Assembly: GCF_013167455.1 (NCBI RefSeq)
Contig: NZ_CP038328.1
Strand: one strand, 5' to 3'
Origin: Escherichia coli O157:H7
GTDB taxonomy: Bacteria > Pseudomonadota > Gammaproteobacteria > Enterobacterales > Enterobacteriaceae
DNA: 64,000 nt
The notes beneath the pieces are model-generated. The model worked only from the letters and a program-made list of their open reading frames with translations, made no database searches and was not told the origin of the DNA. Within the stretch, counting starts at the first letter, position 1. Each line of letters starts with the position of its first letter. Positions 3,538 to 64,000 of the stretch are shown piece by piece. The translations under genes and the position numbers were made by a program.

Positions 3538-4656
3538 ATGCATAACCAGGCTCCAATTCAACGTAGAAAATCAACACGTATTTACGTTGGGAATGTGCCG
3601 ATTGGCGATGGTGCTCCCATCGCCGTACAGTCCATGACCAATACGCGTACGACAGATGTCGAAGCAACGGTCAATCAAATCAAGGCGCTGGAACGCGTTG
3701 GCGCTGATATCGTCCGTGTCTCCGTACCGACGATGGACGCGGCAGAAGCGTTCAAACTCATCAAACAGCAGGTTAACGTGCCGCTGGTGGCTGACATCCA
3801 CTTCGACTATCGCATTGCGCTGAAAGTAGCGGAATACGGCGTCGATTGTCTGCGTATTAACCCTGGCAATATCGGTAATGAAGAGCGTATTCGCATGGTG
3901 GTTGACTGTGCGCGCGATAAAAACATTCCGATCCGTATTGGCGTTAACGCCGGATCGCTGGAAAAAGATCTGCAAGAAAAGTATGGCGAACCGACGCCGC
4001 AGGCGTTGCTGGAATCCGCCATGCGCCATGTTGATCATCTCGATCGCCTGAACTTCGATCAGTTCAAAGTCAGCGTGAAAGCGTCTGACGTCTTCCTCGC
4101 TGTTGAGTCTTATCGTTTGCTGGCAAAACAAATCGATCAGCCGCTGCATCTGGGGATCACCGAAGCGGGTGGCGCGCGCAGCGGGGCAGTAAAATCCGCC
4201 ATTGGTTTAGGTCTGCTGCTGTCTGAAGGCATCGGCGACACGCTGCGCGTATCACTGGCGGCCGATCCGGTCGAAGAGATCAAAGTCGGTTTCGATATTT
4301 TGAAATCGCTTCGTATCCGTTCGCGAGGTATCAACTTCATCGCCTGTCCGACCTGTTCGCGTCAGGAATTTGATGTTATCGGTACAGTTAACGCGCTGGA
4401 GCAACGCCTGGAAGATATCATCACTCCGATGGACGTTTCGATTATCGGCTGCGTGGTGAATGGCCCGGGTGAGGCGCTGGTTTCTACACTCGGCGTCACC
4501 GGCGGCAACAAGAAAAGCGGTCTCTATGAAGATGGCGTGCGCAAAGACCGTCTGGACAACAACGATATGATCGACCAGCTGGAGGCACGCATTCGTGCGA
4601 AAGCCAGTCAGCTGGACGAAGCGCGTCGAATTGACGTTCAGCAGGTTGAAAAATAA
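3538..4656 (+). CDS. ispG: 4-hydroxy-3-methylbut-2-enyl diphosphate synthase (IspG/GcpE)
   Basis: Track ORF 372 aa; recognised GcpE sequence; operon position after rodZ. Confidence 0.96.
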
Positions 4657-4746
4657 TAACGTGATGGGAAGCGCCTCGCTTCCCGTGTATGATTGAACCC
4701 GCATGGCTCCCGAAACATTGAGGGAAGCGTTGAGGGTTCATTTTTA
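4657..4746 (+). ncRNA. sroE: candidate SroE-type 3'UTR-derived sRNA in the ispG-hisS spacer
   Basis: 110-nt spacer after the ispG stop holds a GC hairpin (4666-4684) and a terminator-like stem (4695-4700/4734-4739) plus T-run 4740-4746; recalled that SroE maps between gcpE(ispG) and hisS. Confidence 0.4.
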
Positions 4747-4766
4747 TATTCAGAAAGAGAATAAAC

Positions 4767-6041
4767 GTGGCAAAAAACATTCAAGCCATTCGCGGCATGA
4801 ACGATTACCTGCCTGGCGAAACGGCCATCTGGCAGCGCATTGAAGGCACACTGAAAAACGTGCTCGGCAGCTACGGTTACAGTGAAATCCGCTTGCCGAT
4901 TGTAGAGCAGACCCCGCTATTCAAACGTGCGATTGGTGAAGTCACCGACGTGGTTGAAAAAGAGATGTACACCTTTGAGGATCGCAATGGCGACAGCCTG
5001 ACTCTGCGCCCTGAAGGGACGGCGGGCTGTGTACGCGCCGGCATCGAGCATGGTCTTCTGTACAATCAGGAACAGCGTCTGTGGTATATCGGGCCGATGT
5101 TCCGTCACGAGCGTCCGCAGAAAGGGCGTTATCGTCAGTTCCATCAGTTGGGCTGCGAAGTTTTCGGTCTGCAAGGTCCGGATATCGACGCTGAACTGAT
5201 TATGCTCACCGCCCGCTGGTGGCGCGCGCTGGGTATTTCCGAACACGTAACTCTTGAGCTGAATTCTATCGGTTCGCTGGAAGCACGCGCCAATTACCGC
5301 GATGCGCTGGTGGCATTCCTTGAGCAGCATAAAGAAAAGCTGGACGAAGACTGCAAACGCCGCATGTACACTAACCCGCTGCGCGTGCTGGATTCAAAAA
5401 ATCCGGAAGTGCAGGCGCTTCTCAACGACGCTCCGGCATTAGGTGATTATCTGGACGAGGAATCTCGTGAGCATTTTGCCGGTCTGTGCAAACTGCTTGA
5501 GAGCGCGGGGATCGCTTACACCGTAAACCAGCGTCTGGTGCGTGGTCTGGATTACTACAACCGTACCGTTTTCGAGTGGGTGACTAACAGTCTCGGCTCC
5601 CAGGGCACCGTGTGTGCAGGCGGTCGTTATGACGGTCTTGTGGAACAACTGGGCGGCCGTGCAACACCGGCTGTCGGTTTTGCGATGGGCCTCGAACGTC
5701 TTGTATTGTTAGTACAGGCCGTTAATCCGGAATTTAAAGCCGATCCTGTTGTCGATATATACCTGGTGGCTTCAGGTGCTGATACACAATCTGCGGCTAT
5801 GGCATTAGCTGAGCGTCTGCGTGATGAATTACCGGGCGTGAAATTGATGACCAACCACGGCGGCGGCAACTTTAAGAAACAGTTTGCCCGTGCTGATAAA
5901 TGGGGTGCCCGCGTTGCTGTGGTGCTGGGTGAGTCTGAAGTGGCTAACGGCACAGCAGTAGTGAAGGATTTGCGCTCTGGTGAGCAAACGGCAGTTGCGC
6001 AGGATAGCGTAGCCGCGCATTTGCGCACGTTACTGGGTTAA
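4767..6041 (+). CDS. hisS: histidine--tRNA ligase
   Basis: Track ORF 424 aa with GTG start at 4767; class II aaRS motifs. Confidence 0.96.
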
Positions 6042-26563: not shown

Positions 26564-27265
26564 CTGAACACACCGGCACAGCTCTCTTTGCCACTTTATC
26601 TTCCTGACGACGAAACCTTTGCAAGTTTCTGGCCGGGGGATAACTCCTCTTTACTGGCCGCGCTGCAAAACGTGCTGCGTCAGGAACATAGCGGTTACAT
26701 CTATCTCTGGGCACGCGAAGGCGCGGGGCGCAGCCATCTGCTGCACGCGGCTTGCGCGGAATTGTCGCAGCGTGGCGATGCGGTGGGCTATGTCCCGCTG
26801 GATAAACGCACCTGGTTTGTTCCGGAAGTGCTCGACGGTATGGAGCATTTGTCGCTGGTCTGTATCGACAACATTGAGTGTATTGCAGGCGATGAGTTGT
26901 GGGAGATGGCGATTTTCGATCTCTACAATCGAATTCTGGAATCGGGCAAAACACGGTTGTTGATCACCGGCGATCGTCCACCGCGGCAGTTGAATCTGGG
27001 ATTACCGGATCTCGCGTCGCGACTCGACTGGGGGCAGATCTACAAATTGCAGCCACTTTCTGATGAAGATAAGTTGCAGGCGCTACAGTTACGCGCGCGT
27101 TTGCGTGGTTTTGAACTGCCGGAAGATGTGGGGCGTTTCTTGCTGAAGCGGCTCGACAGAGAAATGCGCACGCTATTTATGACGTTGGATCAGTTGGATC
27201 GTGCGTCGATTACCGCGCAACGTAAGCTGACCATTCCGTTTGTGAAAGAAATTCTGAAGTTGTAG
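26564..27265 (+). CDS. hda: DnaA-inactivating AAA+ protein Hda
   Basis: Track ORF from GTG 26519; recognised Hda sequence (…[18 protein letters not shown]…); start placed at the CTG at 26564 from recollection that Hda uses a non-AUG start; Walker A-like GAGRSHLL. Confidence 0.85.
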
Positions 27266-27279
27266 ATAAGGTGTTTATT

Positions 27280-27375
27280 GTCGGATGCGGCGCGAACGCC
27301 TTATCCGAACTACGCGAAGTTAATCCATAGAATTCGTAGGCCGGATAAGACGTGGCAAGCGTCGCATCCGGCAAT
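27280..27375. repeat. REP/BIME element between convergent hda and yfgD
   Basis: Two inverted REP-like units (gtcggatgcggcgcgaacgccttatccg… and …gtaggccggataagacg…gcgtcgcatccggc). Confidence 0.7.
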
Positions 27376-27402
27376 GTGCTTCAACTAGCGATGGAGCACA
27401 TC

Positions 27403-27762
27403 TTAACCCACGATTTCCAGTACCTGCTCCGGTGGACGACCAATCCGCGCTTTGCCATTCGCGACCACAATCGGGCGCTCCATCAGCTTCGGATTATCCA
27501 CCATTGCCTGAATCAGCGCCTCTTCGCTAAGCGAACTGTCAGCCAGGTTCAGTTCTTTATAAAGATCCTCTTTCTGGCGCATCAATTCACGGGCGCTATT
27601 CATCCCCAGCATTTTCAGCAAATCGCGCAGCGTTGCCGCATCGGCGGGTGTCTCAAGGTAGAGCACCACTTCTGGCTCCACGCCGTTTTCTTTCAGCAGG
27701 TTCAGCGTTTCCCGGCTCTTTGAACAGCGTGGGTTATGGTAGATTTTTACCTGTTTGGTCAT
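27403..27762 (-). CDS. yfgD: ArsC-family reductase-like protein YfgD
   Basis: Track ORF 119 aa; ArsC/Spx fold with N-terminal Cys (NPRCSKSRE). Confidence 0.9.
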   Translation of the reverse strand: MTKQVKIYHNPRCSKSRETLNLLKENGVEPEVVLYLETPADAATLRDLLKMLGMNSARELMRQKEDLYKELNLADSSLSEEALIQAMVDNPKLMERPIVVANGKARIGRPPEQVLEIVG

Positions 27763-33883: not shown

Positions 33884-34634
33884 GTAACCCCCGGAGTACG
33901 CGAAAGAGTTGCTGAACGATACTATTGAGACGTGGATCGTCGGCATCGCGCAACCAGGTGTTAACCCGATTTCCTGTAGGATCGTTGCTTAAATGGCGCA
34001 GGAGCCGATCGCAAATTTCTTGCCCCTGACGATAGCCCGCCAGCCGCCGCGCTTCTCGCTCAATGGCGATACGCTGTGATGGCGGGATCTGCGGCCACAA
34101 CGGTTGCATAGTCACCCCGGTGGGATCGCGATAATCCACCGCGTGAATCTTCTGTTGCAGCAAACCGAGCGCCACGGCGAAACCGTGAATGGTGGCGGCC
34201 GGTGTTGGCGGGCAGCCGGGGATCCAAACATCAATGGGGACAATGGTGTCGCTGCCGCCCCAGACGCTGTAGAGATCGTGGAAAATACCGCCGCCGACAC
34301 CGCACGCGCCGTAGGAAACACAGATTTTATGATCGGGGGCAGACTCATACGCCCGAAGTGCAGGCATACGCATCGCCCGGGTGACTGCGCCAGTAAATAA
34401 CAAAATATCGGCGTGACGCGGTGATGAAACAACCTTAATGCCAAAACGTTCTGCGTCGAATACGGGTGTGATGGCGGCAAAAATTTCGATTTCACAGGCG
34501 TTGCAGCCGCCGCAATCGACGCGATAAACGTAGGCTGAGCGACGGATATCCTGTAGCAAATGCCGCTTCATCTTTTGCGTTTGCTCGTCCAGCGTGATGG
34601 GCTGGCTGACATGTTGTGTAAGCACTGGACTCAT
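33876..34634 (-). CDS. hyfI: hydrogenase-4 small subunit (NuoB-like)
   Basis: Track ORF 252 aa; NuoB-type Cys ligands. Confidence 0.9.
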
Positions 34635-51617: not shown

Positions 51618-52316
51618 ATGAAACATGACCATTTTGTTGTTCAAAGCCCGGATAAACCTGCGCAACAGTTGTTACTGCTTTTCCACGGTGTCGGGGATAA
51701 CCCGGTGGCAATGGGGGAAATAGGTAGCTGGTTTGCACCGTTGTTCCCGGATGCGCTGGTGGTGAGTGTCGGTGGCGCGGAGCCGAGCGGTAATCCGGCG
51801 GGGCGTCAGTGGTTTTCGGTGCAGGGTATTACGGAAGATAATCGCCAGGCGCGTGTGGATGCCATCATGCCGACGTTTATTGAAACGGTGCGCTACTGGC
51901 AGAAACAGAGCGGAGTAGGGGCTAACGCCACGGCGCTAATCGGTTTCTCTCAAGGCGCGATTATGGCGCTGGAGAGCATTAAAGCCGAACCGGGCCTTGC
52001 TTCACGCGTCATTGCTTTTAACGGACGCTATGCGAGCCTGCCGGAAACCGCGTCTACAGCCACGACAATTCACTTGATTCATGGCGGTGAAGATCCGGTT
52101 ATCGATCTGGCGCATGCAGTTGCGGCGCAGGAAGCGTTAATCAGTGCCGGTGGTGACGTGACGCTGGATATCGTGGAGGATTTAGGCCATGCGATCGACA
52201 ATCGCAGTATGCAATTTGCCCTGGATCACTTGCGTTATACCATTCCGAAACATTATTTCGACGAAGCGCTAAGCGGCGGTAAGCCTGGCGATGATGATGT
52301 GATTGAAATGATGTAA
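51618..52316 (+). CDS. ypfH: esterase YpfH (alpha/beta hydrolase)
   Basis: Track ORF starts at 51594; ATG 51618 preceded by AAGGAG gives MKHDHFVVQSP; GFSQG nucleophile elbow. Confidence 0.9.
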   Translation: MKHDHFVVQSPDKPAQQLLLLFHGVGDNPVAMGEIGSWFAPLFPDALVVSVGGAEPSGNPAGRQWFSVQGITEDNRQARVDAIMPTFIETVRYWQKQSGVGANATALIGFSQGAIMALESIKAEPGLASRVIAFNGRYASLPETASTATTIHLIHGGEDPVIDLAHAVAAQEALISAGGDVTLDIVEDLGHAIDNRSMQFALDHLRYTIPKHYFDEALSGGKPGDDDVIEMM

Positions 52317-52321
52317 TAATA

Positions 52322-52389
52322 GCCGGGTAGGCCTGATAAGACCGTATCAGGCATCATGGCCGGATGCGGCGTTAACGCCTTATCCGGCC
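52322..52389. repeat. REP element between convergent ypfH and ypfN
   Basis: gccgggtaggcctgataagacc…ggccggatgcggcgttaacgccttatccggcc. Confidence 0.7.
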
Positions 52390-52396
52390 ACTTAGC

Positions 52397-52597
52397 TTAC
52401 TTCTTCGGTTGATCCTTTTTCGGCCAGTCGTCGTCATCGTCCCACTTATCGTTGAAATCACGATGCGGGGGAAGCTCCGGCTTGTTGGCGAGAAATTTCT
52501 TATGGTCGACGCGCTTGAGATCTTTAATCACGTTCAGCAGGACGCCTACCAAAAAGACAATCACCAGAATCCACCAATATTTAGCCAGCCAGTCCAT
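52397..52597 (-). CDS. ypfN: small membrane protein YpfN (UPF0370)
   Basis: Track ORF starts at 52621; internal ATG 52597 gives [22 protein letters not shown]; acidic/basic tail. Confidence 0.75.
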
Positions 52598-62581: not shown

Positions 62582-63625
62582 ATGCGCTATCGCATTTTCC
62601 TTCTCTTTTTTTTCGCTTTGTTGCCGACGTCTTTGGTGTGGGCGGCACCAGCGCAACGGGCGTTTTCCGACTGGCAGGTCACCTGTAATAACCAAAACTT
62701 CTGCGTGGCGCGTAATACGGGCGATCATAATGGACTGGTGATGACCCTGAGCCGCAGCGCCGGGGCGCATACCGATGCCGTTTTACGTATTGAGCGCGGC
62801 GGGTTGAAGTCGCCGGATGCGTCTGAAGGGGAAATTGCGCCACGGCTGCTGTTAGATGGCGAGCCGTTGGCGTTAAGTGGTGACAAGTGGCGGATTTCAC
62901 CATGGTTATTAGTAACCGATGATACGGCAACCATCACCGCGTTTTTGCAGATGATTCAGGAAGGGAAGGCGATCACCTTACGCGACGGCAATCAGACCAT
63001 TTCTCTGAGTGACTTAAAAGCGGCGTTGTTGTTTATTGATGCTCAGCAAAAGCGCGTTGGCAGTGAAACCGCGTGGATCAAGAAAGGGGACGAACCGCCG
63101 CTCAGCGTACCGCCCGCGCCTGCGCTGAAAGAGGTCGTGGTGGTTAACCCAACGCCGACGCCACTCTCACTCGAAGAACGCAACGATTTGCTGGATTATG
63201 GAAACTGGCGGATGAATGGTCTGCGCTGCTCGCTTGATCCATTGCGTCGTGAGGTGAATGTCACTGCGCTGACTGATGATAAAGCGCTGATGATGATTAG
63301 CTGTGAGGCAGGGGCCTATAACACCATTGATTTGGCATGGATTGTGTCGCGTAAAAAGCCGCTGGCCTCGCGCCCGGTCCGGCTGCGTTTGCCGTTCAAC
63401 AACGGTCAGGAGACGAATGAACTGGAACTGATGAACGCAACATTTGATGAGAAATCGCGTGAACTGGTGACCTTAGCGAAAGGGCGCGGATTAAGCGATT
63501 GTGGCATTCAGGCGCGCTGGCGCTTTGACGGTCAGCGTTTTCGCCTGGTGCGTTACGCCGCAGAACCCACCTGCGATAACTGGCATGGGCCAGACGCCTG
63601 GCCCACGTTGTGGATCACCCGTTAA
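62582..63625 (+). CDS. ypfG: YpfG, periplasmic DUF1176-type protein of unknown function
   Basis: Track ORF 347 aa; N-terminal signal peptide; several Cys pairs. Confidence 0.85.
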   Translation: MRYRIFLLFFFALLPTSLVWAAPAQRAFSDWQVTCNNQNFCVARNTGDHNGLVMTLSRSAGAHTDAVLRIERGGLKSPDASEGEIAPRLLLDGEPLALSGDKWRISPWLLVTDDTATITAFLQMIQEGKAITLRDGNQTISLSDLKAALLFIDAQQKRVGSETAWIKKGDEPPLSVPPAPALKEVVVVNPTPTPLSLEERNDLLDYGNWRMNGLRCSLDPLRREVNVTALTDDKALMMISCEAGAYNTIDLAWIVSRKKPLASRPVRLRLPFNNGQETNELELMNATFDEKSRELVTLAKGRGLSDCGIQARWRFDGQRFRLVRYAAEPTCDNWHGPDAWPTLWITR

Positions 63626-63642: not shown

Positions 63643-63712
63643 GTAGGCCGGATAAGACGCTGTAGGCCGGATAAGACGCGTCAGCGTCGCATCCGGCAAT
63701 CAGCATCCGGCG
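63643..63712. repeat. REP/BIME cluster between ypfG and tktB
   Basis: Tandem gtaggccggataagacgc units followed by an inverted gcgtcgcatccggc unit. Confidence 0.7.
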
Positions 63713-63719
63713 ATCACCA

Positions 63720-64000
63720 TCAGGCACCTTTTACTCCCAGCACCTTATGCGCTTTTGCCACAATATTCTCGGCGGTAAAGCCAAAGAACGGGAACAGCTT
63801 ATCCGCCGGAGCAGATTCCCCATAACCCGTCATCCCGACAATTGCCCCTTTCAGACCAACATACTTGTACCAGTAATCGGCAATACCTGCTTCCACCGCC
63901 ACGCGAGCCGCAACGTTAGAAGGCAACACCGACTCCCGATATTCCTCATCCTGGGCGTCGAAAATATCGGTCGAGGGCAGGGAAACCACGCGAACATTGC
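63720..64000 (-). CDS. tktB: transketolase 2, C-terminal portion (5' end outside window)
   Basis: Track ORF 63720..63989 ends …[19 protein letters not shown], typical transketolase C-terminus; open to window end. Confidence 0.9.

Follow-up and report, generated by a model that had tools for sequence, protein, structure and literature searches.

The palindromic intergenic loci that we describe here, four in number, very probably belong to the Escherichia coli REP family, arranged partly as BIME-like pairs, and the one that lies in the leader of purC is, within that same reading, most likely a tolerated passenger. All four are found in a single stretch of 64,000 nucleotides from E. coli O157:H7, referred to below as the window, and are located between hda and arsC (site 1), between bamC and purC (site 2), between ypfH and ypfN (site 3), and between ypfG and tktB (site 4). 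Elements of this kind are already known and are ordinary features of E. coli, as REP and BIME sequences have long been described in the literature and account for about 1% of the chromosome. Relative to MG1655, the window is in reverse orientation and corresponds to coordinates of approximately 2.58–2.64 Mb; the stretches tested show 100% identity with O157:H7 genomes such as PV15-279 and 98–99.7% identity with K-12.

A first-pass annotation of this DNA had reported REP palindromes at exactly these four places. Its count and coordinates are borne out by gapped scanning, shuffling and folding, because full-length hits occur only there, exceed the shuffle maximum and form the expected hairpins. 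Its gene contexts are also correct, the gene that it called yfgD being arsC in the current RefSeq record. One refinement is needed, in that sites 3 and 4 are not clean elements; they are partly degenerate or duplicated.

REP identity of the four loci

The reference units used for the alignment were the K-12 Y unit GTAGGACGGATAAGGCGTTCACGCCGCATCCGGCA and the K-12 Z2 unit GTAGGCATGATAAGACGCGCCAGCGTCGCATCAGGCA, both of which flank rayT/yafM and have been published as text (Nunvar, 2010), together with the Y oligonucleotide that was co-crystallised with TnpA_REP (Messing, 2012). Both strands of the whole 64 kb were scanned by the Smith-Waterman method, and ungapped matching was compared with that in 200 dinucleotide-preserving shuffles of the window. 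In the gapped scan of the whole window, full-length REP matches were obtained at the four loci only, with all remaining hits scoring 15 or less. Ungapped identity to the Y and Z2 references amounted to 29–33 of 35–37 positions, against a shuffle maximum of 25 (n = 200). Each full unit forms a bulged hairpin, with folding energies of −8.9 to −15.1 kcal/mol (DNA parameters) and z values of −3.0 to −5.3 relative to shuffles.

The characteristic landmarks of the family are retained in nearly all of the units. The tetranucleotide GTAG is located 5′ of the stem foot in five of the six units, namely those at 27279–27313 (minus strand), 27336, 47670, 52327 and 63662; it has been lost only from the Y unit of site 3, which has GTGG at a position where K-12 keeps GTAG. 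The 2 × 2 interior loop (the AA/GC bulge, GATAAG/CGCATC) is present in every full unit and missing from the truncated Z2 unit at 52327–52354. All units are extragenic, between annotated genes, and the family has a high copy number: 62 REP units were counted in 246 kb of K-12, and a megablast query with the purC locus matched, via its 36-nt unit, a median of four places per genome. The earlier description of these elements as ordinary E. coli REP/BIME sequences thus stands, as they align to the K-12 Y and Z2 units, carry GTAG and the AA/GC bulge, and fall into the same classes as the 62 K-12 units.

Across the corresponding region, the K-12 RefSeq record has no annotated repeat feature, and none of the four elements was matched by any Rfam model, sroE being the sole Rfam hit in the window. 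A search with the short pattern GCCGGATGCGGCG, allowing up to three mismatches, gave 59 matches versus 34 expected and was therefore uninformative. A generic inverted-repeat search returned many unrelated palindromes in the window.

It is hardly conceivable that the four palindromes are generic hairpins outside the REP family, that is, either ordinary terminators of the intrinsic type or GC-rich inverted repeats that arose by chance. Terminators are to be expected between convergent genes, where three of the four loci do lie, and the inverted-repeat search makes it clear that palindromes are common elsewhere in the window. However, the identity to the references exceeds anything seen in the shuffles and extends to the unpaired GTAG and the AA/GC bulge, the palindromes lack a U-tract on direct reading, the 36-nt purC unit alone matches other places in the genome, and the loops are targeted by IS1397-family elements. 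The alignment statistics already refute a generic-hairpin identity.

The insertion sequences deserve separate mention. IS1397 inserts specifically into the palindromic units of BIMEs, to judge from the titles cited by Nunvar (2010). In isolate SC418, an IS1397-family element is found in the loop of the Z unit of site 1, flanked by a duplicated CAA, and in strain ST2747 another is found in the loop of the Y unit of site 3. Their location in REP loops at these two sites therefore provides independent support for REP identity.

In the literature, REPs are regarded as substrates of the single-copy RAYT/TnpA_REP enzyme, and the rayT/yafM gene is present elsewhere in the genome, outside the window. 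Both GTAG and the two-nucleotide interior bulge are required for binding of TnpA_REP (Ton-Hoang, 2011; Messing, 2012). The intact units carry these sequence determinants and are predicted to bind the enzyme. The two units of site 3 are degenerate, the Z2 unit by truncation and the Y unit by loss of GTAG, and therefore probably no longer bind TnpA_REP.

A comparison among strains, proposed earlier as a check, showed that the four loci are present in 5401–5425 of 5426 complete E. coli genomes, with indel alleles at sites 1, 3 and 4. No sign of recent mobility was seen at the four loci, which are fixed across E. coli and show indel variation only. In addition, nothing essential separates them from the E. 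coli REP or PU sequences (Y, Z1, Z2), at least as the descriptions of Stern (1984), Gilson (1991) and Bachellier (1999) are cited in later papers. They share with these a length of 35–38 nt, the GTAG at the 5′ end, an imperfectly palindromic sequence with the AA/GC bulge, an extragenic position and a high copy number, and they are nearly identical to the published Y and Z2 units. What differs is the presence of degenerate copies, namely the Z2 unit of site 3 with its 10-bp deletion, the Y unit of site 3 that has lost GTAG, and the half-copies of site 4.

Unit classes and arrangement at sites 1, 3 and 4

To place the units in classes, the same scan was applied to a 246-kb sample of K-12 that includes the rayT REPtron and the araD-A, malE-F, gltP-yjcO and REP325 regions. 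The 62 units in this sample comprise 31 Y units, 25 Z units with a CCTGAT/ATCAGG outer stem, and six Z units with a GGAT outer stem. The CCTGAT form of Z is the partner of Y in tandem arrays of the sample, including REP325, which has been termed 'Z2 + Y' (2026 preprint). The distinction between Y and Z, and the assignment of the CCTGAT type to Z2, are firm, and the units align to the published references, a check that had been proposed earlier. The Z unit of site 3 is of this CCTGAT (Z2) kind. Those of sites 1 and 4, with their GGAT outer stem, fall into a minor sub-class (6 of the 31 sampled K-12 Z units), which in the sample occurs only in non-tandem elements. We suspect that this minor sub-class is Z1; the labels z1 and z2 are used inconsistently across Ton-Hoang (2011), Messing (2012) and Nunvar (2010). 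A simple equation of Z1 with the CCGGAT form conflicts with a statement in Ton-Hoang (2011), and the Z1 label is therefore not used here. The Y units of sites 1 and 2 are of the common TCGGAT...ATCCGA variant that is also found in the gltP-yjcO array, and they share an unusual G-to-T change at position 5 (GTAGTTCGG).

At site 1, hda (stop codon at 27263–27265) converges with arsC/yfgD (stop codon at 27403–27405, minus strand). The Y-class unit GTAGTTCGGATAAGGCGTTCGCGCCGCATCCGACA occupies 27279–27313 on the minus strand, matches the published Y unit at 31 of 35 positions, has a hairpin z value of −3.0, and is the same in K-12. On the hda mRNA strand it is an inverted unit (iREP), which begins 13 nt after the hda stop codon, with the stem beginning 15 nt after it. 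A 22-nt linker, GCGAAGTTAATCCATAGAATTC (27314–27335), joins two facing GTAG ends on direct reading, and is followed on the plus strand by the Z-class unit GTAGGCCGGATAAGACGTGGCAAGCGTCGCATCCGGCA (27336–27373), which has a Y-like outer stem, a gapped score of 25 to Z2 and a z value of −4.3; 30 nt separate the end of its stem from the arsC/yfgD stop codon. The site is covered over at least 80% of its length in 5419 of 5426 genomes. At least one strain among the matches listed, PEC403, lacks 32 bp here, with most of the Y unit gone.

This arrangement raises the question of whether site 1 is a classical BIME-1 (RIB/RIP), the main role of which would be IHF binding between its Y and Z1 units. BIME-1 has been defined as z1 plus y in single copy with a long linker L, often containing an IHF site (Ton-Hoang, 2011). 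In keeping with this, site 1 is a single-copy pair of Y and Z units across a linker with GTAG ends facing, its Z unit has a GGAT rather than a CCTGAT outer stem, and its 22-nt linker is longer than the 13–17-nt GTAG-facing linkers of most sampled K-12 pairs. However, in the linker and its surroundings no sequence comes closer to the IHF consensus WATCAANNNNTTR than two mismatches out of 13 positions in the window and three out of 13 in the K-12 allele, and this match is not convincing. Furthermore, the text of Ton-Hoang (2011) implies TGCC|TGAT in z1 iREPs, a junction that the Z unit of site 1 does not have. The linker also resembles no recurrent linker in the 246-kb K-12 sample. BIME-1 membership is therefore not established, since the linker matches no recurrent linker and contains no good IHF consensus, and we consider it rather unlikely. 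Site 1 is described here as a BIME-like pair of Y and Z units.

Site 3 is located between the convergent genes ypfH (stop codon at 52314–52316) and ypfN (stop codon at 52397–52399, minus strand). Its Z2-class unit (52327–52354, plus strand; z = −4.6) carries a 10-bp internal deletion, as revealed by alignment with K-12 and strain 2022H047, so that it is reduced to GTAGGCCTGATAAGAC/CGTATCAGGCAT; the full unit in K-12 and 2022H047 is GGCCTGATAAGACGCGTGAGCGYCGCATCAGGCA. The deletion in the window removes the inner stem and the loop, and the remnant still folds. GTAG of this unit begins 10 nt, and the stem 14 nt, after the ypfH stop codon. The Y-class unit GGCCGGATAAGGCGTTAACGCCGCATCCGGCC (approximately 52358–52392, minus strand) matches the Y reference at 29 of 35 positions, with a hairpin z value of −5.2; its GTAG is replaced by GTGG after an 11-bp deletion relative to K-12, and the ypfN stop codon is 5 nt away from the end of its stem. 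Among strains, the site falls into three identity bands of 1112, 1432 and 2882 records, because of deletion alleles affecting the Z2 unit, the linker and the Y unit.

As a tail-facing pair of Z2 and Y, site 3 resembles BIME-2, the tandem, alternating Y/Z2 elements with short S linkers exemplified by REP325 at yjdM-yjdN and by the rayT REPtron, and its linker of 11–12 nt in K-12 and 2022H047 is like the tail-facing linkers of both. It differs from BIME-2 in that it consists of one pair only and not of a tandem array, and the copy in the window is eroded, with a linker of only 3 nt, the loop of Z2 deleted and GTAG of Y lost. Sites 1 and 3 are also similar to the REPINs of Pseudomonas (Bertels and Rainey, 2011) in that each consists of two inverted REPs and a spacer, but the E. 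coli unit sequences are different. REPINs have been proposed to be non-autonomous elements that depend on a single-copy RAYT (Bertels and Rainey, 2011).

At site 4, ypfG (stop codon at 63623–63625) converges with tktB (stop codon at 63720–63722, minus strand). The site contains one complete Z-class unit, GTAGGCCGGATAAGACGCGTCAGCGTCGCATCCGGCA (63662–63698, plus strand), the outer stem of which is Y-like; this unit matches Z2 at 33 of 37 positions, has a z value of −5.3, and is the same in K-12. It is preceded by a 19-nt head half-copy, GTAGGCCGGATAAGACGCT (63643–63661, plus strand), which duplicates, in direct orientation, the first half of the neighbouring Z unit, begins 17 nt after the ypfG stop codon and is missing in strain ES8. 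On the other side, two tandem 14-bp tail repeats, GCATCCGGCAATCA and GCATCCGGCGATCA, occupy 63689–63716 on the plus strand, with the second tail copy at 63703–63712. This second tail pairs with the head half-copy as an outer helix, which reaches to 7 nt from that of tktB's stop codon, and the resulting nested hairpin has a folding energy of −24.2 kcal/mol (z = −6.6). The length of the site varies among strains, in which the 14-bp tail is present two to five times. Some strains, Ecol_881 among them, carry an unrelated GC-rich repeat in place of the REP, and this repeat is also found elsewhere in K-12. An apparent third tail, 'CATCAGGCA' at 63717–63725, was rejected as REP sequence; it is where the coding sequence of tktB ends.

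The REP element in the purC leader

Unlike the other three loci, which lie between convergent genes, site 2 is flanked by the codirectional genes bamC (stop codon at 47555–47557) and purC (ATG at 47770). A terminator-like hairpin with a T-run, assigned to bamC, is found at 47564–47585, upstream of the PurR box. On the plus strand, direct reading reveals a −10-like TATGAT for purC at 47595–47600, followed by the PurR box ACGCAAACGTGTGCGT at 47601–47616, which is the reverse complement of the box ACGCACACGTTTGCGT identified by ChIP-chip (Cho et al., 2011). The distance from the purC start codon to the transcription start is 163 nt in both K-12 (RegulonDB) and O157:H7 EDL933 (Cappable-seq) (EDL933 TSS study, Table S5). 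This would place the start at approximately 47607, seven bases past TATGAT and within the PurR box. A promoter scan found no sigma-70 site above threshold at purC, and the promoter position given here is based on the published distance, not on that scan.

The single Y-class unit of site 2, GTAGTTCGGATAAGGCGTTCACGCCGCATCCGACA (47670–47704, plus strand), matches the Y reference at 32 of 35 positions, with a hairpin z value of −4.3. Because transcription starts 163 nt upstream of ATG, the unit corresponds to +64 to +98 of the 5′ UTR, and the claim of the first-pass annotation that this copy sits inside the purC leader is thereby confirmed. Its further wording, that the copy lies there "rather than between convergent genes", holds for the position, but the rarity that it implies is weak: about 40% of K-12 REP elements are located between tandem genes (2026 preprint), and the position is for this reason only mildly unusual. 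The sole particularity of the site, itself mildly unusual, is that the promoter of the downstream gene is upstream of the REP. A literature search for a described REP in the purC leader returned irrelevant matches only.

The hairpin is part of an extended element (47662–47716, plus strand), in which a half-arm, TGTCGGAC (47662–47669), and a tail-like sequence, CATCCGGCA (47708–47716), pair around the REP. In the predicted RNA fold of the whole leader, a nested helix surrounds the REP hairpin and the Shine-Dalgarno region (AGGAG at 47757–47761) is uninvolved; overall, the fold has a z value of −1.1 relative to shuffles. Of 5426 genomes, 5425 cover the site completely, and in all of the matches listed it is a single uninterrupted piece.

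The history of this leader was approached by comparing 120 purC loci, one genome per species. From the start of the PurR box to ATG, the distance is 65–68 nt in most Enterobacteriaceae with an identical box (Citrobacter, Klebsiella, Enterobacter, Kosakonia, Leclercia and others), 168–169 nt in E. coli, E. albertii, Escherichia sp. MOD1-EC7003 and two divergent species representatives labelled 'E. coli', and 142–144 nt in Salmonella enterica subsp. arizonae and Intestinirhabdus alba. The additional leader DNA contains a palindrome that is specific to the genus; that of Salmonella is similar to the Salmonella REP listed by Nunvar (2010).

In the window, the REP is bracketed by two copies of a duplicated ancestral leader sequence, both on the plus strand and both aligning to the Citrobacter leader, which has the segment in a single copy. 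The left copy, CAGGAAAACGCGATTTTAGCGGTAATTCGCAC, is located at 47620–47651 and forms a direct repeat with the right copy, CAGCAAAAGATTTTAAAACGTTAATTCACAC, at 47724–47754, directly 5′ of AGGAG. The repeat cores, CGGTAATTCGCAC and CGTTAATTCACAC, are 13 nt long, 85% identical and 103 bp apart, and can be extended to approximately 31 nt. Taken alone, this duplication is borderline and not significant, with a score of 14 versus a null maximum of 16; it recurs at the same place in four lineages.

The purC REP is most likely an old, tolerated passenger insertion. It would have arrived with an insertion of approximately 100 nt, consisting of the REP and the duplicated stretch of leader, in a leader that was ancestrally short. 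This event may be placed before the divergence of the Escherichia species, and it would have left PurR control and the ribosome-binding site intact.

The location of the REP within a transcribed 5′ UTR might suggest that it is a functional cis-regulatory element, for example a partly Rho-dependent attenuator or a structural barrier that determines mRNA stability, so that Escherichia would have a further level of control after initiation on top of PurR repression. Its near-universal, uninterrupted presence in E. coli could be read in this way, as could the fact that its hairpin, lengthened by the flanking arms, dominates the local structure of the leader. Elsewhere, a REP has been found to act both as a partly Rho-dependent terminator and as a stabiliser (2026 preprint), and a GC-rich palindrome occurs at the same place in Salmonella and Intestinirhabdus. 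However, most Enterobacteriaceae in which the PurR box is identical and the ribosome-binding region nearly so manage with the short leader and no palindrome. Across five Escherichia lineages, the site 2 hairpin has undergone no compensatory change and five pair-breaking changes, so that the changes in the other Escherichia species are pair-breaking only. Because this covariation test was performed on five sequences only, neutral decay is suggested rather than proven, and the hairpin that is fixed in E. coli itself could be under selection. Also arguing against regulation are the lack of an Rfam family matching the region, a whole-leader fold that is no more stable than shuffles, and a hairpin that on direct reading is not followed by a U-tract. 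A regulatory role of the purC REP is very improbable.

A different and decidedly doubtful proposal is that the purC 5′ UTR is a recurrent landing site for genus-specific REP-type palindromes, or that the inserted hairpin was co-opted for tuning purC after initiation. The leaders of three lineages contain different palindromes: a Y REP in Escherichia, a Salmonella-type REP in Salmonella arizonae, and another GC-rich palindrome in Intestinirhabdus. All three inserts are flanked by a duplication of approximately 22–35 bp of the ancestral leader. Short hairpins are also present in the purC leaders of Siccibacter species and 'Enterobacter pulveris'. If the landing-site reading were true, the empty site of Citrobacter and Klebsiella would provide a filled-versus-empty record of REP insertion with a long target duplication.

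Possible effects on transcripts and significance

When transcribed, the hairpins of the three convergent loci may function as local 3′-UTR elements, which would block 3′-to-5′ exonucleases and partly terminate transcription at hda/arsC, ypfH/ypfN and ypfG/tktB. In addition, stems no more than 15 nt from a stop codon, as at hda, ypfH, ypfN and the outer helix at tktB, may stall the terminating ribosome and thereby reduce translation. The terminator, exonuclease-barrier and translational effects that we propose for these loci are extrapolated from other REPs, and REP effects are context-dependent, with no general effect on half-life found (2026 preprint).

For translation, distance is the relevant quantity. 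REPs have been reported in the literature to reduce translation when located less than 16 nt from a stop codon, and the stop-to-stem distances are 15 nt at hda, 14 nt at ypfH, 5 nt at ypfN and 7 nt for the outer helix at tktB, compared with 30 nt at arsC and 21 nt at ypfG. By this rule, hda, ypfH, ypfN and tktB are therefore candidates, and arsC and ypfG do not qualify.

Overall, the four elements have little importance beyond their correct annotation. They do explain the length polymorphism and the IS1397 insertions in the hda-arsC, ypfH-ypfN and ypfG-tktB spacers, and the hairpins at hda, ypfH, ypfN and tktB are candidates for the published REP-mediated down-regulation of translation. The lineage-specific, duplication-flanked insertion in the purC leader is the sole mildly interesting side result. 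With approximately 100 nt inserted in Escherichia and none in Citrobacter and Klebsiella, this leader provides a natural comparison for studying the spread of REPs or their effect in a 5′ UTR.

The purC leader insert

Compared with its counterpart in most Enterobacteriaceae, the purC leader (47617-47769), in which the single Y unit of site 2 lies (47670-47704, + strand), has about 100 additional nt in Escherichia species; in Salmonella arizonae and Intestinirhabdus the excess is about 75 nt, as judged from comparison loci of other genomes (L010, L012, L028, L054, L057, L059, L123 and L129). The insert contains a REP-type palindrome that differs by genus, and on each side of the insert lies one copy of a segment of the ancestral leader that has been duplicated. 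The left copies of this duplicate have the derived TTCGC in common, and TTCAC is present in the right copies and in single-copy purC leaders.

Insertions, tandem copies and replacement at the other REP loci

At two of the four loci, the REP loops are the exact insertion points of IS1397-family elements in other strains, namely between hda and arsC in isolate SC418 (L003, 1099-2449), where CAA is duplicated at the flanks of the element, and between ypfH and ypfN in strain ST2747 (L135, 1102-2449). The ypfH gene of ST2747 is also truncated.

At site 4 (ypfG/tktB), the 14-bp REP tail GCATCCGGCAATCA (63689-63716) is a small variable-number tandem repeat with two to five copies between strains (comparison loci L004, L005, L006 and L007), and strain ES8 is without the 19-bp head duplicate of this site. 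In some strains, including Ecol_881 and 23CRST013 (L008 and L009, respectively), the place of the REP in the ypfG/tktB spacer is taken by an unrelated GC-rich repeat, CCCCTCGCCCCTCTGGGGAGAGGGTTAGGGTGAGGGG, which also occurs in K-12 in the spacer downstream of rpiB/yjdP (L132, about 34270-34340) and which we presume to resemble the boxC family. In 23CRST013, a YeeU/CbtA toxin-antitoxin island replaces ypfG directly upstream of this spacer.

Neighboring structures and unit sequences

A separate hairpin, TGTGCTTC ... GGAGCACA (27376-27401), lies between the Z unit of site 1 and the stop codon of arsC (yfgD); it is identical in K-12 and could be the actual 3' structure of arsC. The only Rfam match at gathering threshold within the window is the small RNA sroE (4656-4747; RF00371, 116.6 bits).

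The K-12 araD-araA spacer (L133, 16607-16812) contains three direct Z2 units separated by 49-nt linkers, each of which holds a short, degenerate Y-like palindrome (GCCGGATGCGCTTTGCTTATCCGGCCTAC). These palindromes were not picked up by the REP scan at its threshold, and eroded units therefore slip past simple consensus scans.

The Y units of sites 1 and 2 are identical except at one position. Both have an unusual T as the fifth base of the unit (GTAGTTCGG; 27309 and 47674), where the purC site of other Escherichia species has G or A. This shared T could be a coincidence, or it could reflect gene conversion between the two copies.
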